Shown here piece after piece: positions 3,488-32,000 of a stretch of 32,000 nucleotides of DNA. Source of the stretch: Candidatus Saccharimonadota bacterium (lineage in GTDB: Bacteria > Patescibacteriota > Saccharimonadia > Saccharimonadales > Saccharimonadaceae); contig NZ_CP045921.1 in the NCBI RefSeq assembly GCF_025273655.1, forward strand, positions 900,001 to 932,000, read 5' to 3'. How positions within the stretch are numbered: position 1 is the stretch's first letter; the number at the start of each line of letters is the position of its first letter. The position numbers and the translations under genes are program-made. Under the pieces are notes generated by a model. It did not search any database and had not been told where the DNA came from. It saw only the letters and a list, made by a program, of their open reading frames with translations.

Positions 3488-3494
3488 ACACTGT

Positions 3495-3523
3495 ATTATG
3501 AATAAGATATTTTAATTAGACAA
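3495..3523 (-). promoter_or_regulatory. Sigma70-like promoter for the rimB-like/rimK operon, apparently leaderless
   Basis: Minus strand reads TTGTCT, 17 nt, CATAAT, 7 nt, ATG(3487). No SD sequence is present. Confidence 0.5.
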
Positions 3524-3524
3524 C

Positions 3525-3553
3525 TTGAATATATTAACATAATTTTGTATAAT
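3525..3553 (+). promoter_or_regulatory. Near-consensus sigma70 promoter for the ATP-grasp gene at 3561, apparently leaderless
   Basis: TTGAAT (3525-3530), exact 17-nt spacer, TATAAT (3548-3553), 7 nt, ATG(3561). No SD sequence is present. Confidence 0.6.
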
Positions 3554-3560
3554 TATCAAT

Positions 3561-13127: not shown

Positions 13128-13154
13128 CTAGCACTCTCATGTAAAGAGTGCTAG
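13128..13154. promoter_or_regulatory. CIRCE operator (HrcA-binding inverted repeat) over the dnaJ promoter
   Basis: CTAGCACTC-N9-GAGTGCTAG compared with the consensus TTAGCACTC-N9-GAGTGCTAA. It overlaps a putative -35 (TTACAT) and the spacer of a TATACT box (13116-13121) that sits 7 nt before the ATG. Confidence 0.85.
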
Positions 13155-13859: not shown

Positions 13860-15518
13860 CTAGAAGTGTTCGCGGATATGCCCAAAGCTGAAATCCCAAT
13901 CAGCATCGGTTTTCTTCTTGGGATTGAAGATATTTTGGGGATCGAAGAGCTGTTTAACTTCGCGCATGTAGCCAAGTACAGTTGGGCCGTACATTTGCTC
14001 AAGCCAAGGGCCGCGAACCATGCCGTCGTTGTGTTCACCACTGATGCTGCCACCATATTTGAGCACTAATTCGTTGACTTCTTTTTGTGACGGTTCTAGT
14101 TTTGCTCGTTCGGCTGGGTCTTCGATTTTCATGAGAGGTATCACATGGAAGTTGCCATCACCCATATGACCCGCGATTGTCGCGAATAATTTATATTTTT
14201 TGATGATCTGCTGTAGCTGAGGCAGAAACTCTGGCAGATGCTCTGGCGGAACGATAAAATCATCAATGTATGGGGCTGTATGTTTGTCTTTTACCTTGCT
14301 GCGCAGGAGTTGAAAGCTGTAACGGCGCATAATCCAAAACTTCTCACTCGAACCTTCGGTCGGATCTTCTTCGAAGCCGTTGATTTCATAACGAGCACGA
14401 TGCTTACCGAGACTCTTGTGAAGATCTTTTACCTTTGCGCGCACTTCCGCCTCACTATCCCCGTTGAACTCAACCATAAGAATAAGTTTTGGAATACCAC
14501 GAAGCAACTGGAATCCTTCTGGGATGAGCGTGATAAGTAAATGAATAAATCGTACTGGGCCAAGTAGTTTGAGGAAACTTGGCATGAATTTGATGCTCAG
14601 CCACAGTGTTTGGTCATCAAAGCTCTCAAATGTAGCTGGGTTGCTTTCGAGTACTTTTGGAATCAGCTCACCAAGTTCCTTCGTGCTACGCAGGAACAGT
14701 ACGAGCAGGCCGCTATGGGCGCGACGCTTCACTAGCTTGAATTTGATATCTGTCACAATACCGAGTGTGCCCTGAGCGCCAACGAAGAGCTTGGTTAGGT
14801 CAAAGATACCCGTGTCGCGGTTCCAGACATTCCAGAGATGGTAGCCGGTCGAATCCTTAGACACTCTTGGCTTGGCAGCCTGGATTTCATCGTAGTGTGC
14901 TTCGAGCAGCTCAAACGTGCGCGCGTAGAGCTGACCTTCGAAATCATCCTGAGCCATCTTGGCATTGAGTTCATCTCTAGTAAGCGGCTTGACTGTATAC
15001 TCGTTGCCATCGCTGAGTACTACTTGGAGCTCAGTCACGTAATTATCTGTTTTGCCGTACTCAAGCGACTTCTCACCGCCAGAGTTGTTGTTGACCATGC
15101 CACCGACACTGGCAAGATCACGACTGGCCGGATAACTTGGCAGCAAGCTGTCTTTTGCCACGGTTGCCTCGTCGAACTCGCGGAACAGCATACCCGGCTG
15201 TACATGTGCAGTTGTCTCGGTCACTTCGCGCAGGTTGTTCATATATTTGGAGATATCGAGCACAATTGACCGGCCTATCGCACCACCGGACATGTCCGTA
15301 CCGCGAGAACGCGGCGTGATGCTCAGCTCGGGATGTTCAGCTTTGTGTTCGTTAACAAATTTGACGACGTTTTTGATGTCTTCTGCGTCTTTTGGAAAGC
15401 CCACCACTTCCGGCTTGAGTTCAAACAAGCTGGCGTCGTGCGAGTAAAATTCGCGCGACTCATCCGAAGTATCGAGCTCGCCTTTGAAGATTTTTGCGAG
15501 TTCCTCTTGTAGATTCAT
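13860..15518 (-). CDS. FAD-binding oxidoreductase (GlcD / D-lactate dehydrogenase family, FAD_binding_4)
   Basis: N-terminus typical of FAD-linked oxidases (FP.dAEDIKNVVKF, ITPRSRGTDMSGGAIG) and a C-terminal GGSISGEHNDG motif. Start set at MNLQEELA (15518). Confidence 0.88.
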   Translation of the reverse strand: MNLQEELAKIFKGELDTSDESREFYSHDASLFELKPEVVGFPKDAEDIKNVVKFVNEHKAEHPELSITPRSRGTDMSGGAIGRSIVLDISKYMNNLREVTETTAHVQPGMLFREFDEATVAKDSLLPSYPASRDLASVGGMVNNNSGGEKSLEYGKTDNYVTELQVVLSDGNEYTVKPLTRDELNAKMAQDDFEGQLYARTFELLEAHYDEIQAAKPRVSKDSTGYHLWNVWNRDTGIFDLTKLFVGAQGTLGIVTDIKFKLVKRRAHSGLLVLFLRSTKELGELIPKVLESNPATFESFDDQTLWLSIKFMPSFLKLLGPVRFIHLLITLIPEGFQLLRGIPKLILMVEFNGDSEAEVRAKVKDLHKSLGKHRARYEINGFEEDPTEGSSEKFWIMRRYSFQLLRSKVKDKHTAPYIDDFIVPPEHLPEFLPQLQQIIKKYKLFATIAGHMGDGNFHVIPLMKIEDPAERAKLEPSQKEVNELVLKYGGSISGEHNDGMVRGPWLEQMYGPTVLGYMREVKQLFDPQNIFNPKKKTDADWDFSFGHIREHF

Positions 15519-15580
15519 AGTACCACTGTAGCACAAGCGTAAACGTTTTGGTGGTATTTTTGGCAGAGTATACTAGCTAT

Positions 15581-16909
15581 ATGAAGAAGCTTGATGCCAC
15601 CTGGTTTCCGACATACGCCCATCTCCTCCATATTGTTGGTGAGACATACGATCTATTGGATCCCTCGCCATCAATTTTGGCAACACAACGTGCCAAATTC
15701 GAAGCATCTCATTACACTATAAGCCCAGACTTAGTCGCTGATAAACCCCACATCTCGACACTCAAAACGGCCCGAGAAGACGCTGAGCAGTTGCGCTCGC
15801 GCATTATGACAGAAGAGACGATTACACTCGTGCGCGATGCCTACATACCGGCGCTCGACTCGCTACTCCTCAATATTCAGCTCATCATGGCTGGCGCAAC
15901 TGGGGATATGGAGTCATACCGTAGTGCTAGCGAGCAACTTTATGGCCAGCCGAACCGCACCATCTTCGACGCAGCATGCGCTTGGATTCGCGACGATGCA
16001 CTCGCTACCGCCATGGGTCACTCACCACTACTTACAAAGTTGAGAGATGATGTGCTTGAGGCAATTCCTCACATTACTGCAGACCATCATATACTCGTCC
16101 CCTCCGAAGCTACTTTTGCCGCCGTTAAACAAAGTCATGCCGACTACTACATGAAGTTGTTTGGCTCAGACGGCATACCGAACGAACCATATATAGACGA
16201 AGATACGGGTAACGAGATCTGCCGCCGTGTCTTAGCTAACATCGGCTCAGACTATACACTTGCGCCGTCCGACAACAATCTCTGGGCTATCTTGCCAAGC
16301 CACAAGCAAGTTGTCTACCCTACAGGTTACCGACTCGACCGCGATGAGTTCGTCGGCATCGTCTGCCATGAGATCGGCAGTCACGTGCTCGAATCGGTCA
16401 ACGGCAGCAACTCCCCGCTCCAACTCCTGAGTTCCGGACTCGCCGGGTACGAAAAAGGCAATGAAGGCCGAGCATTTCTACGCGAACAGATTGTCTACCC
16501 GCATGAATGCACGTTTCTCCGCCAATTCTCGTGGGAATATATCGTATTGTTGCATATATCCGTGAGCTTTGCTGCCGGTCTCAACGGGCAGCCATACGAT
16601 TTCGCTCGTCTGTACGACGTGTTATATAAACTCTATTATTTCTGGCGCGAACGCCGCGAGCCCAGGGCAACCAACAACGAAGCCTTTGCGCGCCAAGAAG
16701 CCTGGTACCAGGCCGTGCGTATCCTCAAAGGAACACTAGGAAATGGTTCGGCCGCGTATTTGAAAGATACTGTATACCTGGAGGGTAACGTTCGCTGCTG
16801 GCAGCTAGCTACCGATGACCCTTCCGTAATTTTACTGGGCGATCTGGGTAAATTCGACCTTACCAACCAGTTTCATCGCGCATTCGCTCTTAGCCTTGCC
16901 CCATATTAG
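15581..16909 (+). CDS. DUF1704 family (QEGLA-motif / MATCAP-like) putative metallocarboxypeptidase
   Basis: VCHEIGSHVLESVNG....GLAGYEKGNEGRAFLREQ...LKDTVYLEG matches the DUF1704 pattern HEIgtH..NG...GL.gY..tQEGLA. Start set at the ATG at 15581, which has TATACT 6 nt upstream. Confidence 0.75.
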   Translation: MKKLDATWFPTYAHLLHIVGETYDLLDPSPSILATQRAKFEASHYTISPDLVADKPHISTLKTAREDAEQLRSRIMTEETITLVRDAYIPALDSLLLNIQLIMAGATGDMESYRSASEQLYGQPNRTIFDAACAWIRDDALATAMGHSPLLTKLRDDVLEAIPHITADHHILVPSEATFAAVKQSHADYYMKLFGSDGIPNEPYIDEDTGNEICRRVLANIGSDYTLAPSDNNLWAILPSHKQVVYPTGYRLDRDEFVGIVCHEIGSHVLESVNGSNSPLQLLSSGLAGYEKGNEGRAFLREQIVYPHECTFLRQFSWEYIVLLHISVSFAAGLNGQPYDFARLYDVLYKLYYFWRERREPRATNNEAFARQEAWYQAVRILKGTLGNGSAAYLKDTVYLEGNVRCWQLATDDPSVILLGDLGKFDLTNQFHRAFALSLAPY

Positions 16910-19952: not shown

Positions 19953-19979
19953 TTAGCACTCTCATGCATAGATTGCCAA
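19953..19979. promoter_or_regulatory. CIRCE-like element, proximal, with a degenerate right half-site
   Basis: TTAGCACTC-N9-GATTGCCAA. The left half is perfect; the right half has 2 mismatches to GAGTGCTAA. Confidence 0.6.
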
Positions 19980-19998: not shown

Positions 19999-20025
19999 TT
20001 AGCACTCCTATGTCAAGAGTGCCAA
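19999..20025. promoter_or_regulatory. CIRCE operator, distal, upstream of dnaK
   Basis: TTAGCACTC-N9-GAGTGCCAA, one mismatch to the consensus. Confidence 0.85.
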
Positions 20026-20089: not shown

Positions 20090-20965
20090 ATGAAGCGAGG
20101 GGTTATCACGACATGTTGCTTAGCTCTAGGACTAAGCTTTCTTGTGAGTGTGCCAGCTCATGCCGACACGAGTGGTCTGTGGATGTCTTCGTCTCGCCAG
20201 AATCTCACAAGCAAAGCAGGTGTCGGTACAAGCGCACATATTAAAATAGCGAACAAGACAGACGCCCCAATGGACGTCCAGCTCTCCGTAAAATCTTTTA
20301 ACGTTGACTCTCAGACGCGCGCCATTACCTTCGTCGATCCTCGCGAAGATTGGATTACTCCAGATGTCCCCCGGCTAGAGTTAGCTCCCACAGAAGAACA
20401 GGATATCAACTACCGCATTGCTATTCCTGTGACCGCCGACGAAAAAGAGTACCATTTCGCACTCATAGCCAGCACAGTTGTTGGTAGTGATCAAAACGCC
20501 AAGACACTTCGCGTTGCCTCACTTCTGTACCTTTCTGTAGATGGAGGACATTTGACTCGCGCGGGTGATATCACCTCGGCACACGTGCCCTCGTTTGCGT
20601 TTGGTACTACTATCCCCTATACATTTGCTATCAAAAACACCGGAGATATCCATCTGGAGCTCCAGTCGAACGTCCAACTTCAGGGCCAAGCCTGGAACTC
20701 ATTAACAACCGCCCGGCCAGCGGTCGTACTACCTGGCGAATCGCGCACCATAAGTGATGCCGTGACCTCACCCTCCCTACCGGGCATCTATACGCTGCGC
20801 TATGGCTACACAGACGACACAACTGGAGCCAAAACACTCGAAGTCGTCCCCGTTATATATCTTCCTATATGGGCCGTAGGCGTACTTGCGAGCCTACTGC
20901 TTGCCAGCGTCTGGCTTTGGCAAAGACGCCGCTCAGGTAAGATTAGCGCTACGTCCGACCAATAG
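20090..20965 (+). CDS. Cell-surface protein, DUF916/DUF3324-like, with signal peptide and C-terminal TM anchor
   Basis: Signal peptide ending VPAHA, two beta-sandwich-like halves, then a C-terminal IWAVGVLASLLLASVWLW-QRRR anchor. This architecture matches the partners of WxL proteins in Gram-positive bacteria. The call is by pattern only. Confidence 0.45.
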   Translation: MKRGVITTCCLALGLSFLVSVPAHADTSGLWMSSSRQNLTSKAGVGTSAHIKIANKTDAPMDVQLSVKSFNVDSQTRAITFVDPREDWITPDVPRLELAPTEEQDINYRIAIPVTADEKEYHFALIASTVVGSDQNAKTLRVASLLYLSVDGGHLTRAGDITSAHVPSFAFGTTIPYTFAIKNTGDIHLELQSNVQLQGQAWNSLTTARPAVVLPGESRTISDAVTSPSLPGIYTLRYGYTDDTTGAKTLEVVPVIYLPIWAVGVLASLLLASVWLWQRRRSGKISATSDQ

Positions 20966-21509
20966 CAGTGTAAGTTACCCCGACACTATACGTACCCGAG
21001 CTCTTGGTGATGTCAATTAGCGCACCATAAGTCATTGCTGTCGGGCTACCGTTTTTAAAAGGCCCGGTACCGCTTGCAATAAGCTGCTGACTCGTCGTCA
21101 TACCGATAAAGTTCGTGGTAGAGCCGGTCGTATTGAATCCCCATGTGTTAGTGCTCAGGGCCCCGGCTGTCGTATTGCTACTCGCCGGTATGGTGTCGGT
21201 GCCATTACTCATATTTGCCGTCGTCGTGCCATTTGCATAGAGGTCGTACCCAACAACATCAAGTGACGTTACAGTAATAGTATGGCCGCCCGTACCACTA
21301 AACGTGCCTCCGCTAGGCGTCATAGCGATATCGGCACTACTATTACTCAATCCGATTGAGATGCTTGTCTGACTGCCAAATGGCACATCTGCCCCAAACT
21401 TGCCCACGCCAAACGGCTGTGCTACCGCTACCTGCTGCCACAATGCAGCGCCGATCGTCAACGCGACCGCTACGGTGAGATGACTGAGCGTGACCCTCGG
21501 TATTTTCAT
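20949..21509 (-). CDS. Secreted beta-rich surface protein (WxL-like / pilin-like)
   Basis: 186 aa with a signal peptide ending VAVAQP and a G/T/S/N-rich beta-strand pattern ending GTYSVGVTYTAIG. Convergent with the DUF916-like gene, with a 17-nt overlap. Confidence 0.4.
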   Translation of the reverse strand: MKIPRVTLSHLTVAVALTIGAALWQQVAVAQPFGVGKFGADVPFGSQTSISIGLSNSSADIAMTPSGGTFSGTGGHTITVTSLDVVGYDLYANGTTTANMSNGTDTIPASSNTTAGALSTNTWGFNTTGSTTNFIGMTTSQQLIASGTGPFKNGSPTAMTYGALIDITKSSGTYSVGVTYTAIGRT

Positions 21510-21592
21510 ATATTACTTAGTATAACAAAGTACGGGTTGTGCTCATGCTTTGGGTTTTGTATACTGTGTGCAGACAGAGGGAGAAATAAACA

Positions 21593-21793
21593 TTGAAAGT
21601 ATTCGATGAGTTGTTGCAGCGCGAAGTGACGCGTGGTGAGTTTCTAAAAATGATTGGTATCGCAGCAGTAAGTGCATTTGGTGTGACAAATTTTATCGCT
21701 AAGCTCTCGCATACATCTAAAGTTATCGAGCAAGGTTCACAACCACATCGTATTGCCAGCCATGGGTTTGGCAGTCGTAAGTTTGGTGAATAA
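21593..21793 (+). CDS. Small hypothetical protein with a Tat-like but RR-less signal (TRGEFLKMIGIAAVSAFG)
   Basis: 66-aa ORF with a TTG start, SD GAGGGAG 9 nt upstream, TATACT box at 21560-21565 and a terminator downstream. It competes with a non-protein-like antisense ORF. Confidence 0.45.
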   Translation: MKVFDELLQREVTRGEFLKMIGIAAVSAFGVTNFIAKLSHTSKVIEQGSQPHRIASHGFGSRKFGE

Positions 21794-21862
21794 CACCATG
21801 CTTTTGTGGTGGCGTCAAAATAGCCTATACTGAGAAGCATATGCTTCACCACAAAGCATCCC

Positions 21863-21941: not shown

Positions 21942-24071
21942 GTGGCAGACCAGCGCCTCCCAATAGTAAATAGTGACGATGGCACCTGGGGTGATCTGTT
22001 ACGTCAATACCTGAAAAAGGAACACTTCGACGACGGCACGAATAATGCAGCCAACGGTGGCCACCAAAACGTGACTATCCGCGGCGGCACGGCAGGAGCC
22101 GGTGGTGCACCGCTAAAGTTCAGTTCCGGCACACTTCTCACTACACCCGAGGTAGGCGCGGTTGAATTCGCTGGTGACAACTTATATGTCACACAGACAT
22201 CTGGCACAACTCGCAAAAAAGTAGCGCTCTACGACGATTCGAGCGGTGTAACTGGCGATCTCTATTATCGCAATAGCGGTGGCTACTTCACACGCCTCGG
22301 CATCGGTACTAGCAACCAGATACTTGCTGTGTCTGGTGGCCTTCCGAGCTGGCAGACACCGACCGCGCAGTCAACCACTTTCAGTGACACTGCGTTTACA
22401 TTGCAAGATGACGGTGATGCAACCAAACAAGCCAAGTTCGAGCTGAGCGGCATCAGTGCTAGCACAACTCGCACGTATACACTTCCAAACGCCAATACTA
22501 CAGTAGTCGGCACAGACACAACACAGACATTGACCAACAAGACGCTCACAAGCCCCACGCTCACCACTCCACGTTTTGCTTCGGGTGGCTATATTGCAGA
22601 CAACAATGGCAACGAACAGATTGTGTTCACAACTACGGCTTCCGCGGTCAACGAGCTCAATGTCAGCAACGCCGCTACAGGCGGGTCGCCCCAGATTGCC
22701 GCCCAAGGTGGAGACACAAATGTCAATCTTAATCTCGTGTCGAAAGGTACTGGCCGTATACAAGCAAACGGAGTAAATATCCCGACAGCAAGCTCGACTG
22801 ACACATTAACCAATAAATCTATAGATGGTAGCACAAATACACTCTCGAACATCTCCTGGGCAGCAGTTACAAAGCCAACTTACATAGCCGCCGGCACCAC
22901 AGTCAAAAATGCATTGAGCGCCGTCAATATGTATCCTTTAGTCGGCTCAGCTGATGTGGGTAATGGTCAGATGTTTGGCGCGTTTGCAGCCAATGCACTA
23001 TATAGTCATCCGGAGTCCGAATGGTTTGTGCCGATACCGCACGCCTACAACGACATTGCGTATAACAACAACCGTGGCGGTACGGTTAAAGTCCTCCTGA
23101 ACGGCTCTACTTATGCTGCCGATGGCAACAATGCTTCCCCATTCTTTACCCCAGATGCCACCTATGAAACAGTCACTGCCTACTCGTCTACAAGTGATAC
23201 TGTCTCCTATGAAATCTCTCTTTACAGAACATTTTACTGGGGTATTAGGTTTGGTATTCAACAAACTGACTGGTGTCGTGGACAAAACGTAATGTTTGAA
23301 GCATACAACGGTACATCATGGTCAACCATACTAAACACCACGAATCAGACTACCGGACTCACTTGGAGCTCGGGCGATGCTGGGTCTACCGGTATCACTA
23401 AGCTACGCGTGTCGCTCACAAACTTTAACGTATCATCTTCTGTTGGTGCGCGTATCTCTCAGGTGTTTTTGCTTGGGTTTGACTCGCAACTTCTATCGAG
23501 CACTTTTCTTCCCAGAGGCGGCGGCCAACTCTTTGGCGAACTAGGTACGCCGGCCATATGGACTGATCGCATAAAGGATCGCACAACGGGTACGGGGATC
23601 ATAGATTTTTACAGTAATGCATCCGCCGTCAACTACCTTCAAATTCAGAATCGCGCCACAGGAGCAGGGCCAAGTATATATGCACAGGGTTCCGACACAA
23701 ATATTGACATAAATCTCATGCCAAAAGGTACGGGCAATGTACTTGTAAATGGCTCCGGTCTTCTCACCGCGAACTCTACTGCGACGCTTACCAATAAAAC
23801 TATTGATGCAACCGCTAACACTATTACAAATATAGGCACCTCGTCCCTATCCGACAGCTCGGTGACATCTGCAAAGATAGCAGACAACAGCATTGTGAAT
23901 GCAGATATCAACGCGTCAGCCGCCATCGCACTCTCCAAACTTGCCGCTGGCTACGTACAGGGATCAGTCAACGGCACTTCAACAACTACGACTGTCTGGC
24001 GCGGCACGCAGGCACAGTACGATGCGATTGGCACAAAAGACAACAATACCCTCTATTTTATATCAGGATAA
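21942..24071 (+). CDS. Phage-tail-fibre-like modular protein 1 (709 aa) with an inserted discoidin/CBM-like domain
   Basis: GTG start and no signal peptide. Recurrent TLTNKT(L/I) spacers. Duplicated shaft module ASAVN..N.ATG..P.I.AQG.DTN..LNL..KGTG. C-terminal VWRGTQAQYDAIGTKDNNTLYFI, typical of phage fibre proteins. Confidence 0.8.
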   Translation: MADQRLPIVNSDDGTWGDLLRQYLKKEHFDDGTNNAANGGHQNVTIRGGTAGAGGAPLKFSSGTLLTTPEVGAVEFAGDNLYVTQTSGTTRKKVALYDDSSGVTGDLYYRNSGGYFTRLGIGTSNQILAVSGGLPSWQTPTAQSTTFSDTAFTLQDDGDATKQAKFELSGISASTTRTYTLPNANTTVVGTDTTQTLTNKTLTSPTLTTPRFASGGYIADNNGNEQIVFTTTASAVNELNVSNAATGGSPQIAAQGGDTNVNLNLVSKGTGRIQANGVNIPTASSTDTLTNKSIDGSTNTLSNISWAAVTKPTYIAAGTTVKNALSAVNMYPLVGSADVGNGQMFGAFAANALYSHPESEWFVPIPHAYNDIAYNNNRGGTVKVLLNGSTYAADGNNASPFFTPDATYETVTAYSSTSDTVSYEISLYRTFYWGIRFGIQQTDWCRGQNVMFEAYNGTSWSTILNTTNQTTGLTWSSGDAGSTGITKLRVSLTNFNVSSSVGARISQVFLLGFDSQLLSSTFLPRGGGQLFGELGTPAIWTDRIKDRTTGTGIIDFYSNASAVNYLQIQNRATGAGPSIYAQGSDTNIDINLMPKGTGNVLVNGSGLLTANSTATLTNKTIDATANTITNIGTSSLSDSSVTSAKIADNSIVNADINASAAIALSKLAAGYVQGSVNGTSTTTTVWRGTQAQYDAIGTKDNNTLYFISG

Positions 24072-24081
24072 GGAGTCCTAG

Positions 24082-24768
24082 ATGTCGATTAAACTTGGTA
24101 CAAATGATATCTCGCAGGTCTCCCCAGGCTCAATTCGTCTCGGGGCAAGCTCCTTAGACCGGGTATACAACGGAACAAAGCTTGTGTGGGAGCGAGGCAC
24201 ACAGACAATCGACACACTTGATTCGCTTGGATCTTTCACCCAGACATCAACCGGCAGTGGAATTGGCGCGTCTGGCGGCGAGGCGCTTTGGAATGGCACA
24301 ACCGATGGTACAGCCACTGCCCTGTACAACACTTCAGCTTTAACAAACAATCAATATGTAGCCGGAATCGCAGGGAGCTACATGAACGCTAGCCGCGCAT
24401 CGGGACTAATTTTCCACTGTGATGCCTCCTTAACGAGTTGGTATGGAGTATTATTCGAAAGTGACCGTATAGCATTGGTTTCAAATACCGGTCGCTGGTT
24501 GCAAAACATAGGTGGCTCTCAGGATGTGAGTTATGCCGAGTGGAGTGGCACCGTCTCAAGTGGCGATACGCTCTCGGCATGGAATATAGGCGAAAATTTT
24601 TATGTTGCCCAAAACGGGACTATTCGTATATCAACAACAATTAGTGGAGCAAATATAGGCGCCACTAAACGTCGCCAAGGCATTGGCCTATACCGCACGT
24701 CATTTGCATCATCATGTCGTATATCTCAGTGGTGGGGTGGCGACGCGGGTGCGTGGGGTAAAATCTAA
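24082..24768 (+). CDS. Jelly-roll (ConA/LamG-like) fibre-associated protein, paralog of 30039-30632
   Basis: SD AGGAG 6 nt upstream. Shares TNQY..., G(L/I)I(F/L)HCD.S, SGD....WNIG(E)NF..A(Q/V)NGT, QGIGLYR.SF and W(W/R)GGDAGA(W/Y)GK(I/L) with the 30039 product. Confidence 0.75.
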   Translation: MSIKLGTNDISQVSPGSIRLGASSLDRVYNGTKLVWERGTQTIDTLDSLGSFTQTSTGSGIGASGGEALWNGTTDGTATALYNTSALTNNQYVAGIAGSYMNASRASGLIFHCDASLTSWYGVLFESDRIALVSNTGRWLQNIGGSQDVSYAEWSGTVSSGDTLSAWNIGENFYVAQNGTIRISTTISGANIGATKRRQGIGLYRTSFASSCRISQWWGGDAGAWGKI

Positions 24769-24943
24769 GCCCATAGGCTCTCAGATACCCTCAAGCCTAC
24801 CTATTTTTCGCAATAGAGCTTATACTATAAGAGCCTATGCTACAGTACAGCAGAGCAAATACCACTAGTGTAGTGGCAATCTTTGCCCGTGTCATCATAT
24901 ATGGGGGTGTATTACGTAGTATCTTCAGAGGAGAATTCTCCTA

Positions 24944-26209
24944 GTGGCCGATCAACGCCTACCGATTGTCAATAGTGACGATGGCACTTGGGGTGACATC
25001 CTGCGGCAATATCTGCAAAAAGAACACTACGATAGTGGTACAAATAGTTCAGAAAACGGTGGCCACAAAAACGTCACAATCCGTGGCGGCACAGCCGGCA
25101 CAGGTGGCGCACCACTCAAATTCACTTCTGGCACTCTACTCACAACGCCCGAAATCGGAGCGATGGAGTTCGCCGGCGATAATCTCTATCTTACACAGAC
25201 GTCAAGCACAACTCGCAAAAAAGTTGCCCTATACAACGATGCCAGTGGTGCAACAGGCGACACATACTACCGCGACGCCAGCGGTTATTTCACTCGTCTG
25301 GGAATCGGCAGCAGTAGCCAAGTATTGACTGTGTCGGGCGGGTTGCCGACATGGCAAACACCAGGCACTGCCAGCACCTTTAGTGATAGTACGTTTACTC
25401 TGCAAGACAATGGCGACACGACCAAACAGGCCAGGTTTGAACTTTCAGGTATTAGCGCATCAAACACACGCACTATCACTCTGCCAGACGCCGACCTGAC
25501 TCTGGTAGGTACCACTACGTCTCAGACACTTATTAATAAACGTATCAACCCGCGCGTTGTCACTGTCACCCAAAGTGCCACGCCGGTCATCAACACCGAC
25601 AACGGCGACGTATTTATCGTCACTGGACTTGCCCAAGCCATCACTAGTATGACATCCGGGCTGACAGGTACACCTGTCGACGGGCAACGTATACGCATCT
25701 CTATTACTGGTACAGCCGCGCGCGCCATTACCTGGGGTACGTCATTTGAAGCCTCAACCAAACCACTGCCAACCACTACAGTCAGCACCAACCGCCTAGA
25801 TACCGACTTTATCTGGAACGCCGCTACTAGCAAATGGCGTGTGGCCGACGAAATACCCGCGACAGTATTGACAAGCAGCGCTGCAGTTACAGTAGCACAA
25901 GGTGGTACAGGGCGAACAACCTCGACAACCGCCTACGGAATTATCGCGGCCGGCACTACTGCAACAGGTGCACACCAGACGATTGCACCTGGTACATCGG
26001 GACAGTTTCTCAAATCTGCCGGTACATCGGCACTAGGTGCTTTCGCCAGTATCACTGCCGCCGATATCACCGGTACAACTGCACAGTTCAATACAGCATT
26101 GAGCGACGGTGACTTCGCCACGCTAGCGGGCAGCGAAACACTAAACAAACAAAACGCTTACCACTCCGCGGCTCACTTCAGGCGGCTCTATAGCCGACAA
26201 CAACGGTAA
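24944..26209 (+). CDS. Phage-tail-fibre-like modular protein 2, upstream fragment (frame interrupted near 26141-26146)
   Basis: GTG start. The first ~200 aa are collinear with fibre 1 and mostly identical by eye. After ...AGSETL the frame decays into NKQNAYHSAAHFRRLYSRQQR-stop, while the homologous sequence continues in another frame. Confidence 0.8.
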   Translation: MADQRLPIVNSDDGTWGDILRQYLQKEHYDSGTNSSENGGHKNVTIRGGTAGTGGAPLKFTSGTLLTTPEIGAMEFAGDNLYLTQTSSTTRKKVALYNDASGATGDTYYRDASGYFTRLGIGSSSQVLTVSGGLPTWQTPGTASTFSDSTFTLQDNGDTTKQARFELSGISASNTRTITLPDADLTLVGTTTSQTLINKRINPRVVTVTQSATPVINTDNGDVFIVTGLAQAITSMTSGLTGTPVDGQRIRISITGTAARAITWGTSFEASTKPLPTTTVSTNRLDTDFIWNAATSKWRVADEIPATVLTSSAAVTVAQGGTGRTTSTTAYGIIAAGTTATGAHQTIAPGTSGQFLKSAGTSALGAFASITAADITGTTAQFNTALSDGDFATLAGSETLNKQNAYHSAAHFRRLYSRQQR

Positions 26210-27476
26210 CGAGCAGATCGTTTTTACTACCACTACATCTGCAGTAAACGAAATCGGTATCACAAATGCCGCCACAGGGACAGCTCCGCAAATCGCCGCG
26301 CGAGGTGACGACACGAATATTGACTTGAATCTAGTATCAAAAGGTACTGGAACCGTAAAAATCAATGGCAACACCGCCGCTACAGATGCAAGCGTTGTCA
26401 AACTAATGGGAATCGTAACCAAAAGTGATTATAGCGGTACTGGCGGCACGATATATTTCAAAATAGCCACCCTGCCCATTGACGACAACGGCAATTACGC
26501 AACACTCAAACTGACTGGACGCCTCGGTGGTTGGGTTGGCGTAGAGAGCGTGGCAGACTGGAACATCACCCTCAATAACCGCTCTAGTAGCCTCAACGGT
26601 ACGACAATTACCGCCACCGTCTTTAGTCAGGGGCACGTCACACAGGCGCTCACTAAGATGGATATCGTTGTATACGGCCAGACCGACAAAAGTGCTATTG
26701 TCTACTTTGCGATTCCTAACGACAGCTACTATACCTATGACATGAGGGTCAGCGCGTTTCAGGCTACGATTGACCATACCGGTACCACTACTACACCTAC
26801 GGGTAGCCAGATCTGGCAGTTATCGGCCGACCCTCAGGTTCTTGCACAAGATGGTGCGCTCGTTATCGCAAACAGGGATAGTACTCCCTGGAGTAATGCG
26901 TCATTTCTAGCATTGAGCGCAGGAAATGCGACAGGATTGAAGATTTCTTCCCAGTTCAACGAGGCTCTTGCTCCAATTGGTCATATTGAATTTACAAATG
27001 GTACGGGTACTGGTACTCATGACTTGATGCTATTTAGCACCTCGACTATTAGCATGCAGTCCCATCGCCTCATCAACGTCACAAATCCAACCGACGCCCA
27101 AGACGCCGCTACAAAAGCTTATGTAGATAGCGCTGTAAGTGGCAGCGGTCTGGCATGGACAGAAGTCACTGGCACCAGCCAAACCGCAGCTACTGGGATG
27201 GGCTATATCGCCAGCAATGCTACACTCGTCACCATTACCTTGCCCTCCAGCGCCGCCGTCGGTAAATCTGTACGAATCACAGGCAAAGGTGCAGGCGGTT
27301 GGCGTATCGCGCAAAACGCCAGTCAGGTAATTCACTTTGGCAACACGGATACGACTACCGGCACCGGTGGGCGCCTCGATAGCACCAATCGCTACGATAG
27401 TGTGGAATTAATCTGCATCACCGCCAACACAGACTGGGTGGTCGCCAGTTCAGTGGGAAATATCAACGTCACATAG
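26145..27476 (+). CDS. Phage-tail-fibre-like modular protein 2, downstream fragment (no credible start of its own)
   Basis: The frame is open from 26145 and reads TNKTLTTPRLTSGGSIADNNGNEQIVFTTTTSAVNEIGITNAATGTAPQIAARGDDTNIDLNLVSKGTG. This is the same module as in fibre 1. Later comes INVTNPTDAQDAATKAYVD, a common fibre motif. The first start codon in this frame is the TTG at 26325, inside the module. Confidence 0.75.
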   Translation, partial: TNKTLTTPRLTSGGSIADNNGNEQIVFTTTTSAVNEIGITNAATGTAPQIAARGDDTNIDLNLVSKGTGTVKINGNTAATDASVVKLMGIVTKSDYSGTGGTIYFKIATLPIDDNGNYATLKLTGRLGGWVGVESVADWNITLNNRSSSLNGTTITATVFSQGHVTQALTKMDIVVYGQTDKSAIVYFAIPNDSYYTYDMRVSAFQATIDHTGTTTTPTGSQIWQLSADPQVLAQDGALVIANRDSTPWSNASFLALSAGNATGLKISSQFNEALAPIGHIEFTNGTGTGTHDLMLFSTSTISMQSHRLINVTNPTDAQDAATKAYVDSAVSGSGLAWTEVTGTSQTAATGMGYIASNATLVTITLPSSAAVGKSVRITGKGAGGWRIAQNASQVIHFGNTDTTTGTGGRLDSTNRYDSVELICITANTDWVVASSVGNINVT

Positions 27477-27489
27477 GTCTATAGATAGC

Positions 27490-28242
27490 ATGGCACTCAC
27501 ATACTCTCTTGTCTATAATGGCGCCGAAAGCTCGACCACACTCGGCCGTCACACCTATGATGCAAATTTCGGCACCATCAGTACAGGCACGCTACTAGTA
27601 ATGTGCGTGACCGCAACCAAAAGCCCCAGCGGAGCATCAAATATACTTTCTATTGCCCAACAATCCGGCACCGCAACAATTTCATCTGTGACAACTATCG
27701 ATAATACAACAGCAAGTTCGACAGATCAGGCTGCACTCAGCATATTCTACGCGACGGTGACGGGCGGCGGAACTTTGACGATGCGTGCGTCCGATAACAT
27801 GAATACATACGGCCTCGGTGTCATAGCTATCGGTTTCACCGGCTATGATACATCCACCCCCATACTAGGAGTCGTCAAGAACAACGCGCTAAGTATCGAT
27901 GGTGCTGCGAGCCTAACACTCAGTGCTACACCGACCGTCAACGATTACGTAGTCGGGTTTGTCAACTCAGACACTGACACCGGTAGTGGCAAAGGTGTTG
28001 ACCCTGGCTCCGGATTTACAGAAGTGGCAGAAGTGGGTGGCGCTAGCGACTATATCATGACCGAGGCTCAGGTGCGCACCGGCAGCACCTCAACAAACGT
28101 GCCATGGGCAGACGTACGGACATCTGGCGCTCCAGCAACCTATACAACTATAGGTGGTGCATTTATAGTTAAGGCTACCCCACCAGTCAGTACTATTACC
28201 GCCATCTCAACAGTCTCAGGAATTTCATCAATCACATTATAA
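27490..28242 (+). CDS. Hypothetical beta-rich protein within the fibre array
   Basis: 250-aa ORF, co-oriented, 13 nt after the fibre 2 stop. S/T/G-rich with no recognisable motif and no obvious SD. Confidence 0.6.
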   Translation: MALTYSLVYNGAESSTTLGRHTYDANFGTISTGTLLVMCVTATKSPSGASNILSIAQQSGTATISSVTTIDNTTASSTDQAALSIFYATVTGGGTLTMRASDNMNTYGLGVIAIGFTGYDTSTPILGVVKNNALSIDGAASLTLSATPTVNDYVVGFVNSDTDTGSGKGVDPGSGFTEVAEVGGASDYIMTEAQVRTGSTSTNVPWADVRTSGAPATYTTIGGAFIVKATPPVSTITAISTVSGISSITL

Positions 28243-28255
28243 TGAGGATATAAGC

Positions 28256-29437
28256 ATGGCAACGCAAAACGCAGCAAATCAGAAATTCACCAACAATGCC
28301 GATGGATTTGCACTTGGCGGTGGAACGACACAGCGTGACCTCACTATGAATGGCTCTAACGCTACAATTACCGGCAGCGGAAGCAATGTCCATACCTTCC
28401 CCACTGGCAGTGATACCCTCGTAGGTAGAACAAGTGTCGATACACTCGTGAGTAAGACTCTGACGAATCCAACCATCAGTAATTTTACAGAGGGAGTGGT
28501 GGTGATAGGCACCGTCAGTACGGCAGTTACGCTCAACCTCACAAATGGCACCATACAGATAGCAACACTAACCGCATCGACGGCCTGTACATTCACTATG
28601 CCAACTGCGACAGCAGGCAAATCTTTTACGCTGATGCTCAAACAAGCTGATAGCACGGGAGGCGGCACGGCAACTTTTGCGGGGGTCAAATGGAGTGCGA
28701 CGGGTGCACCCACTATGACGTCATCTCCAGGCTATATGGATATCTTGCATTTCATCGCGGATGGTGCCAACTGGTACGGCTCATATACACAAGGTATTTA
28801 TGCTCGCTCTTACCTACGTTCAATCGGCACACAAGAATACGCCAATACATTTCAAACCGGCACTAGCGGGCGTGATCTTACATCTGATGGGTGGGTAGAC
28901 CACAGCTATTCAACAGGCACATATCTCGTGTCGAGCTACAATAGTACTCAGATACGACTTATCCCGTCTGGCGTCGGCACCTACCGTTCGTATAACTGCT
29001 ACTACTACAACACAGCTATGAGTAATGCCAGCGTCTGGGGCCGCGTGAAGCTCTACCGCGTACCCCAGTCCGCTGATACAAATGGCGGCGGTGGGATTGT
29101 ACTTAGGCACAATGGGACGTCTGGCATCTTTTGCAAAGTCATGACAAGCGGCAACTGGCGTATTTACACTGGCACATCCAACTCCACCACCTCGACAGAC
29201 GCAAATATCCTGACCTCCGGTACTCTACCAGCTACACTCATGGCCGGTGACGAGCTGACTGCGCTAGTGACAAGCGGCAACGTCGTCTATTTCTACCTCA
29301 ACTCGACCCTACTCGGAAGTGCTTCGACGGCATTCAACAGCTCTTCTCAGTATGTGGGCGTACTCATCTCGCAAAATGATGCTGCCGAGCTCTACGACTT
29401 CAGGTGCGGCAATATGGCATCTGACAGTCCTCCGTAG
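28256..29437 (+). CDS. Fibre-like protein, fused form (N-terminal module shared with 29482 plus a C-terminal jelly-roll-like module)
   Basis: The N-terminal ~180 aa are collinear with the 29482 product (NQKF.NNADGF.LGGGTTQR.LT..G.N.T.TGSGSN..TFP...DTLVGR...ANWYGSY). The C-terminal ~210 aa show the GGGIVLRH...SGNW...GDELTA..SGNV.Y.YLN...FRCGN pattern, similar to the 30039 and 24082 products. Confidence 0.75.
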   Translation: MATQNAANQKFTNNADGFALGGGTTQRDLTMNGSNATITGSGSNVHTFPTGSDTLVGRTSVDTLVSKTLTNPTISNFTEGVVVIGTVSTAVTLNLTNGTIQIATLTASTACTFTMPTATAGKSFTLMLKQADSTGGGTATFAGVKWSATGAPTMTSSPGYMDILHFIADGANWYGSYTQGIYARSYLRSIGTQEYANTFQTGTSGRDLTSDGWVDHSYSTGTYLVSSYNSTQIRLIPSGVGTYRSYNCYYYNTAMSNASVWGRVKLYRVPQSADTNGGGGIVLRHNGTSGIFCKVMTSGNWRIYTGTSNSTTSTDANILTSGTLPATLMAGDELTALVTSGNVVYFYLNSTLLGSASTAFNSSSQYVGVLISQNDAAELYDFRCGNMASDSPP

Positions 29438-29481
29438 ATACTACAAGAAATCAATATTTATCAATTCACGCTATAATAAGA

Positions 29482-30039
29482 ATGACTATGCCTGTCCAAA
29501 ATTCATCTAATCAGAAATTCATTAACAATGCCGACGGCTTCACCCTTGGTGGCGGGACGACTCAGCGCAACCTGACACTCAGCGGCGCAAATGTCACACT
29601 GACAGGCAGCGGAAGCAACACCTATACGTTCCCCGCAAATACCGATACACTTGTCGGACGCAGCAGCACCGATACACTTACCAACAAAACGCTCGCTAAC
29701 CCATCCATAAATAACTATACCGAAGGTGTCGTGACGATTGGTACCGTAACAACCACGTCAACAATTAGTCTGACGAGCGGTACAGTGCAGACCGCCACGC
29801 TCACCGCCTCTACGGCATGTGTATTCACTATGCCCGCTGTGGCAGCAGGGAAATCATTTACACTACTACTCAAGCAGGCGACGAGTACCGGCAATGGATC
29901 AGCCACATTCACTGGCGTGCGATGGAATTCCCTCGGGGCCCCTACTATCACGGCTACGGCTGGCAAAATGGATATTCTCAGTTTTTACTCTGATGGTGCA
30001 AACTGGTACGGCTCTTACATACAGGGATATACACCATAA
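29482..30039 (+). CDS. Fibre-like protein, split form, N-terminal module only
   Basis: 185 aa, paralog of the N-terminus of the 28256 product. Its stop overlaps the next start as TAATG. The start could instead be the ATG at 29488. Confidence 0.75.
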   Translation: MTMPVQNSSNQKFINNADGFTLGGGTTQRNLTLSGANVTLTGSGSNTYTFPANTDTLVGRSSTDTLTNKTLANPSINNYTEGVVTIGTVTTTSTISLTSGTVQTATLTASTACVFTMPAVAAGKSFTLLLKQATSTGNGSATFTGVRWNSLGAPTITATAGKMDILSFYSDGANWYGSYIQGYTP

Positions 30040-30632
30040 TGTTCATGCCGCACACCGCCAGCATGACAGTTATCGACCCGCTCAAATTCAACGATACACT
30101 CGACAGTCTCAGCAACTTTACAGCCACAAGCTCTGGGTCGGGGGTCAATATTAGCAGTAGCATCTTGCAATGGGCGGGCACAACCGACGGTCAGGCAATC
30201 ATAAAGTACAATTCACAGCCGCGCACCACCAATCAATATGGTGCCGCCATCACTAGCACTATGACTGGAAATGGCTCGGGCATTATCTTACACTGCGACT
30301 CAAGCAACACCGGCTATTACGGTGCGGTGTTCTATAACAGCACAATCAAACTCGTGCGCACATCCGGGCGTTGGACACAGAACACTATCACGCAACTTGC
30401 CACCTATAGCATTACAATAAATAGTGGTGATCTAATCGAATTCTGGAACATTGGCAATGTATTCAATATTGCAGTCAATGGCACAACCTACATTAGTCAG
30501 TCCATCAGCAGCCCTGTTATAGGGCCGCTAAATATGTTTCAAGGTATAGGGCTTTACCGTTTGTCGTTCACCAACTCTACCTCTATTACTGAGTGGCGTG
30601 GTGGTGACGCAGGTGCTTACGGCAAGCTCTAA
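30039..30632 (+). CDS. Jelly-roll (ConA/LamG-like) fibre-associated protein, paralog of 24082-24768
   Basis: 197 aa, translationally coupled to 29482-30039. Motifs shared with the 24082 product are listed under that feature. Confidence 0.75.
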   Translation: MFMPHTASMTVIDPLKFNDTLDSLSNFTATSSGSGVNISSSILQWAGTTDGQAIIKYNSQPRTTNQYGAAITSTMTGNGSGIILHCDSSNTGYYGAVFYNSTIKLVRTSGRWTQNTITQLATYSITINSGDLIEFWNIGNVFNIAVNGTTYISQSISSPVIGPLNMFQGIGLYRLSFTNSTSITEWRGGDAGAYGKL

Positions 30633-30704: not shown

Positions 30705-32000
30705 ATGAACAAAAAACTATCTTTTACACAATTATTTTCTCGCACTTCTCTCATCACCTACATCGTCTCCTTCGTATTTATTTCGTCAGTCATAGCAATC
30801 GCACTAGGCAACCAAGCACATGCGGCTGCTGGGGCAGCGTGCAGTTACTCGGCAGACGGCAAGACATACTCTGGCACGACCGTCGAGACAGATGGTGTCA
30901 GCTTTTGTAACGCCACAACATCCGTACTCAATGCCGCAATTGCCGCCACAGCTGCTGCGGGCGGCACCACGTCGACTGCATCAACTACCTGTAAACGCAA
31001 TGCCTCAACAGGCACAGATCTCAATTCTTACATAGATAACTGTGGTGGAAATCAAGAAATTCGTGTCACAAAAACCACAGCCAAACAAGACAAGGGCGCC
31101 AAACCACCCGCTATCATCTTTGTACACGGTGGCGGTTGGTTCAGTGATGACGGCAATTTCAATCCATCGTTTCAAAAACGAGCCGCCAAATGGGGCTTCA
31201 CTTCATTCCGCATTAAATATCGGCTGATGCCGGGCGGTGTCGATGAGCAGCTGCAAGATGTGCTACGCGCCGTCAAACACGTGCGCGACAATGCCGACAA
31301 GTATGGAATCGACAAAAACCGCATCGCTATCTGGGGCGACTCAGCCGGGGGCAGTCTAGCTGTACGCGCTGCCGCAACTGGTAGGTCTGGCGTCAAGGCG
31401 GCTATCGGCTGGTCTGCGCCAACCAATGCATTCCGCGACATCTTCAATTCGTACGATGGTTGGGTAGCCGGCCTATACCACTCGCGCTGCTTCGGCAGCG
31501 AAATCCCTGCCTCCGTTAACGACATCATCAATGCGTTTGTGTCGGGTGACCCGACAGCCCTGGCCCAGAAAGTCGCCTCCGGCCAAGTATTAACACCGGC
31601 AGAAAGTGCCAGACTCCTCAATCTTGCGCTCAATATCGCCCATGTTGGCCTGGTAGATCTACCTACCGCAGCCGGCAAACTCCAGACAGCGTCCAATTCG
31701 CTTGGCTACACTACCACAAGTACCACAGACACCTCGGCTCCTTCCCTCTCGAACGACCAGATCAAATCACAACTTTCAGAGCTTACACCAACCGAACTTG
31801 CCGCTATCGGTGTCGCACTCTATCAGTTCAGTCGCACCGCGCAGGGTATCCCCAACGATGACCCTACAACAACTGATACTGTGAGCATTATCACGTCATC
31901 TGCCAACTTGCTCACACAACTCCAGAAAGAGTCACAACAAGAGAAGGCTGCCAGTGGAACCCAGAGCACAACGAATTCGACCACTTCATCAACAGCCAAT
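30705..32000 (+). CDS. Secreted alpha/beta hydrolase (esterase/lipase, HGGG + GDSAG type), continues beyond right edge
   Basis: Absent from the ORF track because it has no stop in the window. My translation from the ATG at 30705 gives a signal peptide (...ALGNQAHAAA), a Cys-containing segment, FVHGGGW (oxyanion hole), IWGDSAGGSLA (nucleophile elbow), then an S/T/Q-rich tail. The frame is open to base 32000. Confidence 0.75.
   Translation, partial: MNKKLSFTQLFSRTSLITYIVSFVFISSVIAIALGNQAHAAAGAACSYSADGKTYSGTTVETDGVSFCNATTSVLNAAIAATAAAGGTTSTASTTCKRNASTGTDLNSYIDNCGGNQEIRVTKTTAKQDKGAKPPAIIFVHGGGWFSDDGNFNPSFQKRAAKWGFTSFRIKYRLMPGGVDEQLQDVLRAVKHVRDNADKYGIDKNRIAIWGDSAGGSLAVRAAATGRSGVKAAIGWSAPTNAFRDIFNSYDGWVAGLYHSRCFGSEIPASVNDIINAFVSGDPTALAQKVASGQVLTPAESARLLNLALNIAHVGLVDLPTAAGKLQTASNSLGYTTTSTTDTSAPSLSNDQIKSQLSELTPTELAAIGVALYQFSRTAQGIPNDDPTTTDTVSIITSSANLLTQLQKESQQEKAASGTQSTTNSTTSSTAN

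Follow-up and report, generated by a model that had tools for sequence, protein, structure and literature searches.

A chromosomal array of phage-tail-fibre-like genes as a candidate host-recognition system of the parasitic Saccharibacterium Candidatus Mycosynbacter amalyticus

Candidatus Mycosynbacter amalyticus JR1 is a Saccharibacterium (Patescibacteria, or Candidate Phyla Radiation, CPR) with a closed genome of 1,081,308 bp that lives as an obligate lytic parasite of the mycolic-acid actinobacterium Gordonia amarae (PMC11880426). Here we describe an array of phage-tail-fibre-like genes in a 32,000-nucleotide stretch of its chromosome (NZ_CP045921.1, positions 900,001 to 932,000; hereafter the window, whose numbering is used throughout), in which eight consecutive plus-strand open reading frames (ORFs) between positions 21942 and 30632 constitute seven genes. 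Five of the seven bear tail-tip modules whose matches lie almost only in phages of mycolic-acid actinobacteria, and two of the fibres begin with a module that belongs to a large cellular family, nearly all of it from Saccharibacteria. We consider it most probable (roughly 0.6) that the array encodes a set of phage-tail-fibre-like proteins for host recognition, carried on the chromosome and inherited vertically, and that it is not a prophage. The original prediction, made from the nucleotide sequence with the source organism withheld, had pictured a small-genome, epibiont-like bacterium, a description that JR1 fits as an obligate parasite. Our search of the literature on tail fibres in Saccharibacteria and Patescibacteria found no description of such a system.

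Organization of the fibre array

The array encodes four fibre-like proteins (fibres 1 to 4, F1 to F4), two small lectin-type companions (S1 and S2) and an orphan, X_250 (Table 1). F1 corresponds to GII36_05060, a hypothetical protein of Ca. M. amalyticus (100% identity, NCBI), and GII36_05070 is the first half of fibre 2. The original prediction had read the eight ORFs as seven genes, and both the coordinates and the reason for the discrepancy held: fibre 2 is split in JR1 by one extra A at ~26143-26145, within a TLTNKT spacer. The frame of the second half is open directly from the shift (from 26144), and the lesion is therefore recent. An independent Logan assembly of the locus (L001) agrees with the window at 100% identity across 11,962 nt, split fibre 2 included. 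In L003, a very close relative represented by a 596-kb European Nucleotide Archive (ENA) scaffold, the orthologue is intact at 843 aa and is 97.5% and 99.5% identical to the two JR1 halves.

All of the fibre-type modules first read from the translations could be located. These comprise the TLTNKT spacers, a SAVN...KGTG shaft module present three times (at F1 aa 234, at F1 aa 561, and in F2 spanning the frameshift), a NPTDAQDAATKAYVD motif in the distal domains of F2, where TLTNKT spacers are present too, and the C-terminal W.GTQAQYDAI..NTLYFI motif of F1, which is the Pfam family Phage_tail_C (E 1e-14). The proposed division into two paralogous families likewise goes far beyond chance (blastp), with 67% identity over 247 aa between F1 and the N-terminal part of F2 (E 1e-110), and 69% over 180 aa between F3 aa 1-180 and F4 (E 3e-92). 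As had been claimed, a simple hydropathy scan found neither a signal-peptide-like nor a transmembrane-like stretch in any of the eight ORFs. The start codon of S2 overlaps the stop codon of F4 by one base, and aa 78-183 of F4 match the tail-fibre families PHROG 9017 and 7760. X_250 has no Pfam or PHROG match, and its relatives were found only in L003.

Tail-tip modules shared with phages of the host group

The array proteins were searched by tblastn against 50,697 phage genomes. F1, mainly through aa 344-542, matched 66 phage records, among them 41 from Gordonia, 20 from Mycobacterium, 2 from Tsukamurella and 1 from Rhodococcus phages. S1 (33-51% identity over more than 90% of its length, including 51% over 94%), S2 and the C-terminal domain of F3 each returned 15 records, every one of them a Gordonia phage, and the F3 domain shares 60% identity (E 7e-77) with the C-terminal end of the minor tail protein gp30 from phages Hanem, Gray and Chidiebere. 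Within F2, residues 187-300 matched 204 Mycobacterium phage records and one Methylophilaceae phage, and residues 40-187 of the second half matched gp28 of Gordonia phage MichaelScott.

The likeness to actinobacteriophage tail proteins (gp30 of Gray, Hanem and Chidiebere, gp41-42 of Mollymur, gp40-41 of Bantam, Bxb1 gp4, Douge gp20 and TM4 gp23) comprises a distal-module identity of 31-60% (tblastn), modular shafts with TLTNKT-type spacers, lectin and carbohydrate-binding module (CBM) folds, and a large fibre gene followed by a small lectin-like gene. In Mollymur, Bantam, Catfish, Dardanus and Nedarya, the largest or F1-like minor tail gene is directly followed by an S1 homologue that usually closes the tail module, an order mirrored by the F1-S1 and F4-S2 pairs. 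Generic shaft segments match unrelated phages, such as those of Rhodobacter and Stenotrophomonas, and the host-group bias therefore belongs to particular modules and not to the database. No phage of Arthrobacter, Microbacterium or Streptomyces was among the matches, despite a collection rich in actinobacteriophages. Pattern scans of IMG/VR for the F3 C-terminal domain and the S1 family, a method of limited sensitivity, returned no closer viral relatives.

Homology to virion tail-tip proteins is apparent at the level of sequence (PHROG, Pfam, tblastn, PDB) and of structure (Foldseek, BFVD). An AlphaFold2 model of the F1 monomer has a mean predicted local distance difference test (pLDDT) score of 59.6 overall, as a fibre leads one to expect, with low values in the shaft that are expected of an obligate trimer and are no proof of one. 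The central domain is modelled at pLDDT 80-90, and its Foldseek matches are CBM32, CBM61 and discoidin folds. Among predicted viral structures (BFVD), the best matches of F1 are Gordonia phage minor tail proteins, and its C-terminus matches the Bxb1 gp4 tail collar fibre (PDB 9D93, E 2.8e-14). S1 is modelled as an all-beta jelly-roll (pLDDT 85.7, predicted template modelling score 0.83). Against the PDB, Foldseek places it closest to two mycobacteriophages, Douge (central fibre gp20, E 1.9e-10, and baseplate) and TM4 (receptor-binding domain of gp23), followed by CBM66, L-type lectins and a phage Dit CBM. S1 relatives are rare, numbering 10 in 5.8 billion proteins. The Douge domains bind lipoarabinomannan or arabinomannan and alpha-glucan fragments (PMC13033339).

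Three jelly-roll or lectin-like modules had originally been counted in the array, and two of them stand, S1 through its model and S2 as its paralogue (48% identity over 185 aa; blastp, E 3e-55). The third, the C-terminal domain of F3, was rejected as a relative of S1 and S2 (hhalign profile-profile probability 0.3%) and belongs to a different family. Since the distal modules are homologous to tail-tip proteins of Gordonia and Mycobacterium phages, they would most likely bind the same envelope glycans or glycolipids.

A cellular N-terminal module with variable tips

The first 137 aa of F1 and F2 (N-module) are 55-76% identical to the N-termini of many proteins with differing remainders. Profile searching of 1.84 billion representative proteins detected 9417 proteins at E <= 1e-3, of which 200 reached E <= 1e-30; they are 130-2889 aa long, and internal repeats contribute part of the profile signal. 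A scan of one genome per species yielded 129 relatives, of which the best 80 bear the labels of Saccharibacteria or unclassified metagenome-assembled genomes, bar one labelled Nevskiaceae. On the viral side, the 2.9 million IMG/VR contigs yielded no relative, and aa 1-100 had no match in the 50,697 phage genomes. A profile search of the PDB returned no solved relative, and the module is modelled with low confidence (pLDDT 45-84).

The start sites of N-module proteins are conserved at M..QRLP, and a signal-peptide-like hydrophobic N-terminus occurs in none of 70 homologues. Their distal parts are varied, and some are fused to GDSL lipase domains. The arrangement of a conserved docking end and a variable tip, which the original prediction had drawn from the array's paralogues, thus extends to hundreds of proteins headed by this module. 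We hypothesize that the N-module docks F1 and F2 to a surface structure of the parasite.

F3 and F4 are without the 137-aa N-module. The N-terminal part of F3 belongs to a widespread family (1304 matches), and a C-terminal part related to F4 (same ORF cluster) trails the N-module in a common 233-aa Saccharibacteria protein, equal in length to the 233-aa proteins found as homologues of the F3/F4 N-terminal module. Most Saccharibacteria have a short N-module gene (~233 aa) that encodes the N-module and a brief C-terminal part (L039 10001-14330; also L046, L048, L052, L022, L059 and L079). Signal-less genes of ~460, 241 and 200 aa come after it, the latter two with weak glycosyltransferase-like and methyltransferase-like matches, and the set is nested among secreted proteins, some with weak Ig-like matches. 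It looks like a conserved operon of unassigned function.

Conservation of the locus and the question of a prophage

The original prediction held that the 32 kb contain no virion genes, and Pfam and PHROG scans of the window ORFs indeed returned no capsid, terminase, tape-measure, tube, sheath, baseplate or integrase gene. It had also advised inspecting the sequence to the right, where the called genes of the 10 kb examined include no virion gene. Tube, sheath, baseplate and tape-measure genes are likewise lacking in five related loci, and injection-particle genes (sheath, tube, baseplate, spike) were not found by Pfam or PHROG in the window or the called flank genes, to which that search was restricted. 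The sole tRNA in the window (938-1014) lies ~20 kb from the array. The GC content of the array is 0.48-0.53, with GC and third-codon-position GC equal to those of the flanks, and homologous phage regions have a GC content of 0.56-0.67.

The flanks are as originally described, with dnaK and two signal-peptide surface proteins (surf291 and surf186) to the left and a secreted-type hydrolase to the right. The order to the right is hydrolase, grpE, hrcA, tatC, tatA, adk, lepA, murJ and ftsH, and the array therefore lies between dnaK and grpE, inside the heat-shock cluster. The same dnaK-to-grpE site is occupied in five of five related genomes, with a fibre identity of 48-88%. These loci contain a surf gene of ~290 aa, one of ~185 aa on the opposite strand, a 66-72-aa ORF, one fibre, one variable gene and the hydrolase (the last not in L005). 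The variable gene encodes, depending on the genome, an S1-like lectin, an 892-aa GDSL lipase or a Gly_rich_2 protein; in JR1 and L003 this core locus is expanded to seven genes. Between JR1 and L003, the ratio of nonsynonymous to synonymous substitution rates (dN/dS) is 0.02-0.26 across all array genes, and judged by these sequence comparisons the array is under purifying selection.

These observations bear directly on the view that the array is a decaying, functionless remnant of a prophage tail module, which the original prediction had already disfavoured. Fibre 2 is frameshifted in JR1, and all recognisable homologues outside Saccharibacteria are phage proteins, as such a remnant might show. 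We nevertheless find this view scarcely credible: an integrase, an attachment site, a neighbouring tRNA and virion genes are all lacking in the sequence scanned, the composition is that of the host genome, dN/dS is low, the site is kept in relatives whose fibres are as little as 48% identical, L003 has an intact fibre 2, and the N-module heads a large family of cellular proteins with no member in the phage collections that were searched. The evidence thus largely excludes a prophage remnant devoid of function.

Exchange of a binding domain between strains

JR1 and L003 are 99% identical in the flanks of the array, with synonymous divergence (dS) of 0.007-0.05. Within F1, the segment at window positions 22500-23580 (aa ~187-547, shaft and CBM-like domain) and its counterpart at L003 10560-11770 share only ~70% DNA identity and differ by a 120-nt indel; dS rises to 0.57 in F1 and 0.24 in S1. 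The alternative F1 allele of L003 also matches Gordonia phages, which account for 40 of its 45 phage records. This pattern indicates a recent recombinational cassette swap of the F1 central domain between near-identical strains, a mosaic exchange of the kind expected of a specificity determinant or receptor-binding gene.

The same exchange helps in weighing the possibility that the array serves not recognition but feeding on the host envelope, as a secreted toolkit of carbohydrate-binding and esterase proteins. An alpha/beta hydrolase, highly abundant in JR1 cells, occupies the locus in all genomes but L005, an 892-aa GDSL lipase follows the fibre in two relatives, some N-module proteins are GDSL fusions, and M. 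amalyticus is reported to encode arabinogalactan-degrading enzymes (PMC11880426). However, Pfam and PHROG detect no catalytic domain in the JR1 array proteins, whose nearest relatives are virion receptor-binding proteins and not enzyme-appended CBMs, and a strain-level swap of a binding domain fits recognition better. We therefore regard a feeding toolkit as unlikely.

The GDSL lipases/esterases that follow the fibre lie at L096 12025-14703 and L098 11074-13752. In L005, a beta-helix pectate-lyase-like protein with a phage phiTE_241 C-terminal domain is encoded just past hrcA (14181-16172). From these proteins it appears that enzymatic, tailspike-like cargo also uses the locus in relatives.

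Table 1. Coordinates of the fibre array, its modules and the adjoining features of the window
Feature	Position	Strand	Description
Fibre 1 (F1), GII36_05060	21942..24071	+	709 aa; five regions; Pfam Phage_tail_C, PHROG minor-tail/tail-fibre families
F1 N-module	aa 1-137, 21942-22352	+	Saccharibacteria-specific
F1 shaft module copy 1	aa 234-271	+	SAVN...KGTG motif
F1 central domain	aa ~344-542, 22971-23567	+	CBM32/discoidin-like beta-sandwich (AlphaFold2 and Foldseek)
F1 shaft module copy 2	aa 561-598	+	SAVN...KGTG motif
F1 C-terminal tip	aa 596-709, 23727-24071	+	Bxb1 gp4-like
S1	24082..24768	+	228 aa; stand-alone lectin-type jelly-roll that accompanies fibre 1; PHROG 2804 'virion structural protein'
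Fibre 2 (F2), split	24944-27476: 24944-26209 (421 aa) and 26325-27476 (383 aa)	+	F1-type N-module, one shaft module, distal domains
X_250	27490..28242	+	250 aa; orphan, conserved in L003, dN/dS 0.26
Fibre 3 (F3)	28256..29437	+	393 aa; family-two N-terminal part (aa 1-180) and C-terminal domain
F3 C-terminal domain	aa 184-393, 28805-29437	+	common to Gordonia phage minor tail proteins
Fibre 4 (F4)	29482..30039	+	185 aa; family-two module only, short fibre and tip domain; PHROG 9017, 7760
S2	30039..30632	+	197 aa; S1 paralogue, companion of fibre 4; PHROG 2804
surf291	20090..20965	+	signal peptide, Ig/Fn3-like domains, C-terminal membrane anchor; fibre-gene neighbour across Saccharibacteria
surf186	20949..21509	-	small secreted Thr/Ser/Gly-rich protein; convergent with surf291
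66-aa ORF	21593..21793	+	TTG start, T-R-G-E-F-L-K motif, hydrophobic helix, C-terminal GFGSRKFGE; conserved in relatives
alpha/beta-hydrolase esterase	30705..32000, continues off window	+	584 aa; N-terminal hydrophobic leader; Pfam BD-FAE, Abhydrolase_3; PHROG esterase
CIRCE (HrcA operator) x2	19953-19979 and 19999-20025	.	divergent dnaK/surf291 intergenic region; pattern search
CIRCE	13128-13154	.	upstream of dnaJ; pattern search

Neighbouring genes and candidate docking partners

Neighbourhoods were counted over the best 80 of the 129 N-module loci. In 60 of the 80, a surf291 homologue is encoded no more than 10 kb from the N-module gene, and in 58 a surf186 homologue is, each time paired convergently with a surf291 homologue. 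Members of the surf291 family carry a signal-peptide-like N-terminus (130 of 141) and a C-terminal transmembrane-like stretch (127 of 141). Sub-threshold Pfam matches to WxLIP_PGBD (19 of 40, best E 3.6e-5) and fn3_5 (17 of 40) accompany this layout, which resembles that of WxL-interacting proteins of the Gram-positive Csc complex (signal peptide, DUF916 peptidoglycan-binding Ig-like domain and C-terminal membrane anchor, encoded beside WxL-domain proteins). No PDB sequence relative of surf291 was found, and surf186 has neither Pfam nor PDB relatives; the idea that surf186 is a WxL-domain protein was rejected, as its relatives contain no WxL domain.

In L005, L096, L097 and L098 a homologue of the 66-aa ORF (66-72 aa; tblastn E 1e-14 to 1e-22) immediately precedes the fibre gene. 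The C-terminal GFGSRKFGE of the JR1 protein is resembled by PFGVGKFG at the mature N-terminus of surf186. The T-R-G-E-F-L-K motif of the 66-aa protein, together with the hydrophobic helix after it, resembles a twin-arginine (Tat) signal with a single Arg, and tatA and tatC lie ~5 kb to the right of the array; export of the fibres by Tat hitch-hiking on this protein was considered as an idea only, given the single Arg. A 111-aa minus-strand ORF that overlaps it (21517-21852) is probably spurious, as is one overlapping the hydrolase (31172-31696).

The hydrolase gene is complete in L001 (10667-12421) and is present at varying positions in every related locus except L005, which has none within the 10-kb flanks. 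In JR1 cells its product is the 35th most abundant protein (bioRxiv 10.64898/2026.03.03.709456, Table S1). A role as a phage LysB-type mycolyl esterase was raised because in phage Gray the lysin B gene comes next after the homologous minor tail gene, and it was rejected, the protein having no actinophage matches and only generic BD-FAE and Abhydrolase_3 ones.

Matching to the mass-spectrometry table of the same preprint identifies dnaK as QHN43186 and the hydrolase as QHN43198, which bracket the array ORFs, and these are therefore QHN43190-43197. In that preprint, Troman et al. (2026) list a 'tail fibre-like protein', which they leave unanalysed, as a central conserved neighbour of CPR pam operons (bioRxiv 10.64898/2026.03.03.709456). 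Typical Saccharibacteria N-module loci encode several secreted ~340-aa proteins, with weak Ig-like Pfam matches in the two examined, and in most loci the N-module gene has as neighbours Ig-like secreted proteins and others that combine a signal peptide with a C-terminal anchor, features described for the Pam pilins and for PamC, PamD and PamR. These neighbours match the description of pam operons and may be Pam homologues, an assignment drawn from our own comparison of layouts. PDB searches by sequence and by profile with surf291, surf186 and two further neighbour families returned no Pam entry. Unlike the adjacency seen in pam loci, the pam pilus operon of JR1 (QHN43268-43274) is ~70 genes distant from the array.

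The 12-kb fibre locus splits the heat-shock cluster into hrcA-grpE and dnaK-dnaJ halves (L001 12492-13700). The pattern search for the controlling inverted repeat of chaperone expression (CIRCE) gave three matches in the window against 0.03 expected, and because two of them lie in the divergent dnaK/surf291 region, HrcA might also affect the surf291 promoter. A promoter and terminator scan gave no decisive signal.

By Pfam and PHROG, the ordinary cellular genes of the window include dnaJ, dnaK and genes for an FAD oxidase, a VirB6/TrbL-like protein and ATP-grasp ligases of the RimK type. The stretches 2088-6633, 7174-8502 and 15548-16909 hold a cluster of ATP-grasp ligases, RimK-type and others, with a Zn-protease-like gene and, nearby, two MATCAP-like (tyrosine/glutamate carboxypeptidase-like) genes, a set that could be a candidate system for peptide-tail ligation and trimming. 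The VirB6/TrbL-like protein (885 aa, 9239-11896, minus strand, weak match) is encoded 10 kb upstream of the array. Its family is present in 14 of the loci that were clustered and in some Saccharibacteria lies 5-8 kb upstream of fibre genes.

Export, display and the case for host recognition

Several observations weigh against a role of the array in host recognition. First, the array proteins have, by the simple hydropathy scan, no signal peptide or membrane segment, nor is there an evident export route, and none of them is in the part of the JR1 proteome list that gives the top 40 proteins (bioRxiv 10.64898/2026.03.03.709456). Second, first contact with the host has been attributed to Pam pili or type IV pili, and G. 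amarae resistance to JR1 maps to mycolic-acid and arabinogalactan synthesis, with no defined glycan (PMC11880426; bioRxiv 10.64898/2026.03.03.709456). Third, fibre 2 is frameshifted in JR1, an infective laboratory strain, and at least this fibre is therefore dispensable. Fourth, X_250 and F4 have no tblastn match in the 50,697 phage genomes, and part of the host bias of the other genes could be sampling, as cultured phages are rich in actinobacteriophages. Finally, the F1 monomer model is of low confidence outside its central domain.

The lack of signal peptides has led us to consider two further explanations. In one, the fibres belong to a larger nanomachine of the parasite, either phage-tail-like or secretory, and leave the cell with it. 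Cryo-electron tomography has revealed a lance or tube, 9 nm wide and 70 nm long with a barbed tip, that is seen only after host contact (PMC11880426), and the fibres could be its 'barb'; they are signal-less in the manner of phage fibres that assemble onto tails, and the VirB6/TrbL-like family encoded upstream recurs near fibre genes. Yet neither the window, the 10 kb to its right nor the five related contexts contain a tube, sheath, baseplate or tape-measure gene, searches matched the N-module to no phage baseplate-attachment domain, and the link to the lance is purely circumstantial. A nanomachine of this kind is, in our estimation, unlikely.

In the other, the proteins are soluble decoys, released for instance by lysis of some cells, that occupy Gordonia phage receptors in competition with the phages or to shield the host. 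Such decoys would account for modules common to Gordonia phage receptor-binding proteins and for the absence of signal peptides, and Saccharibacteria can change how susceptible their hosts are to phages, as reported for TM7x (PMID 38593079). The conserved N-terminal docking module and the linked membrane-anchored or secreted partners instead favour attachment to the cell, and there is no evidence of release, which makes the decoy explanation very unlikely.

We therefore return to host recognition by cell-attached fibres. Under this reading, the N-modules of F1 and F2 would dock the fibres, probably as trimers, to a structure on the parasite surface; the shafts would be made of generic fibre repeats; and the CBM32-like domain, the Bxb1 gp4-like tip, the F3 C-terminal domain and the S1 and S2 jelly-rolls would act as distal ligand-binding modules. 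Their binding to a mycolic-acid-bearing host would give specific attachment and set the host range. Candidate docking partners are surf291, surf186 and the 66-aa membrane protein in their pam-operon-like setting, and the lance-like tube seen by cryo-electron tomography would be a further candidate for export or docking. Taken to its full extent, the scheme would have receptor-binding modules taken from phages of the parasite's own host group (Gordonia and other mycolic-acid actinobacteria) grafted onto a lineage-specific anchor, exported without a signal peptide, mounted on a surface system encoded by neighbouring genes, and re-tuned in host range by domain swaps. We advance this fuller scheme tentatively, at somewhat less than even odds.

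Comparison with known systems

The array differs from the actinobacteriophage tail proteins to which its distal modules are related in being chromosomal (dnaK-grpE), without virion genes, equipped with a Saccharibacteria-specific N-module and of parasite GC content. The closest functional analogue is instead found in the mosaic adhesive trimer (MAT) fibres of Bdellovibrio bacteriovorus (Caulton et al. 2024, PMC10769870). This predator encodes phage-like fibres in multiple genes, with a conserved beta-rich N-domain of ~130 aa and diverse tips, lectin folds included, for which a role in prey recognition has been proposed (PMC10769870). The original prediction had invoked the fibre adhesins of predatory bacteria, and that likeness stands for the layout of N-domain and variable tip. 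The likeness of the N-domains is one of layout, the array anchor being 137 aa long and carried by F1 and F2 and not by F3 and F4. The likeness does not extend to export and maturation: MAT fibres have Sec signal peptides (PMC10769870), which the array proteins lack, and a C-terminal Peptidase S74 chaperone-protease is present in 13 of 21 MATs, whereas the array has no Peptidase_S74 Pfam match. Going beyond the MAT layout, the tips of the array are traceable to phages of a specific host.

Tailocins and extracellular contractile injection systems (eCIS) offer a further parallel, as phage receptor-binding modules that cells have repurposed to target other cells. Their fibres are encoded with sheath, tube and baseplate and are mounted on a particle, whereas no such genes are present here in the window or the called flanks.

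Implications for host specificity in Saccharibacteria

Published work on M. amalyticus names pili and the mycolic-acid layer and no specificity determinant. The locus described here provides candidates for host recognition that can be expressed, namely S1, S2, the F3 C-terminal domain and the F1 central domain. It also raises the prospect that one pool of receptor-binding modules may serve both a cellular parasite and the phages that infect its host. The N-module family, with ~200 clusters at E <= 1e-30, nearly all from Saccharibacteria, and with lineage-specific tips, is a possible marker for host prediction; if the reading proposed here is true, distal modules could predict the hosts of uncultured Saccharibacteria from the genome alone. 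A possible use would lie in the engineering of M. amalyticus or of phage cocktails against wastewater foaming.

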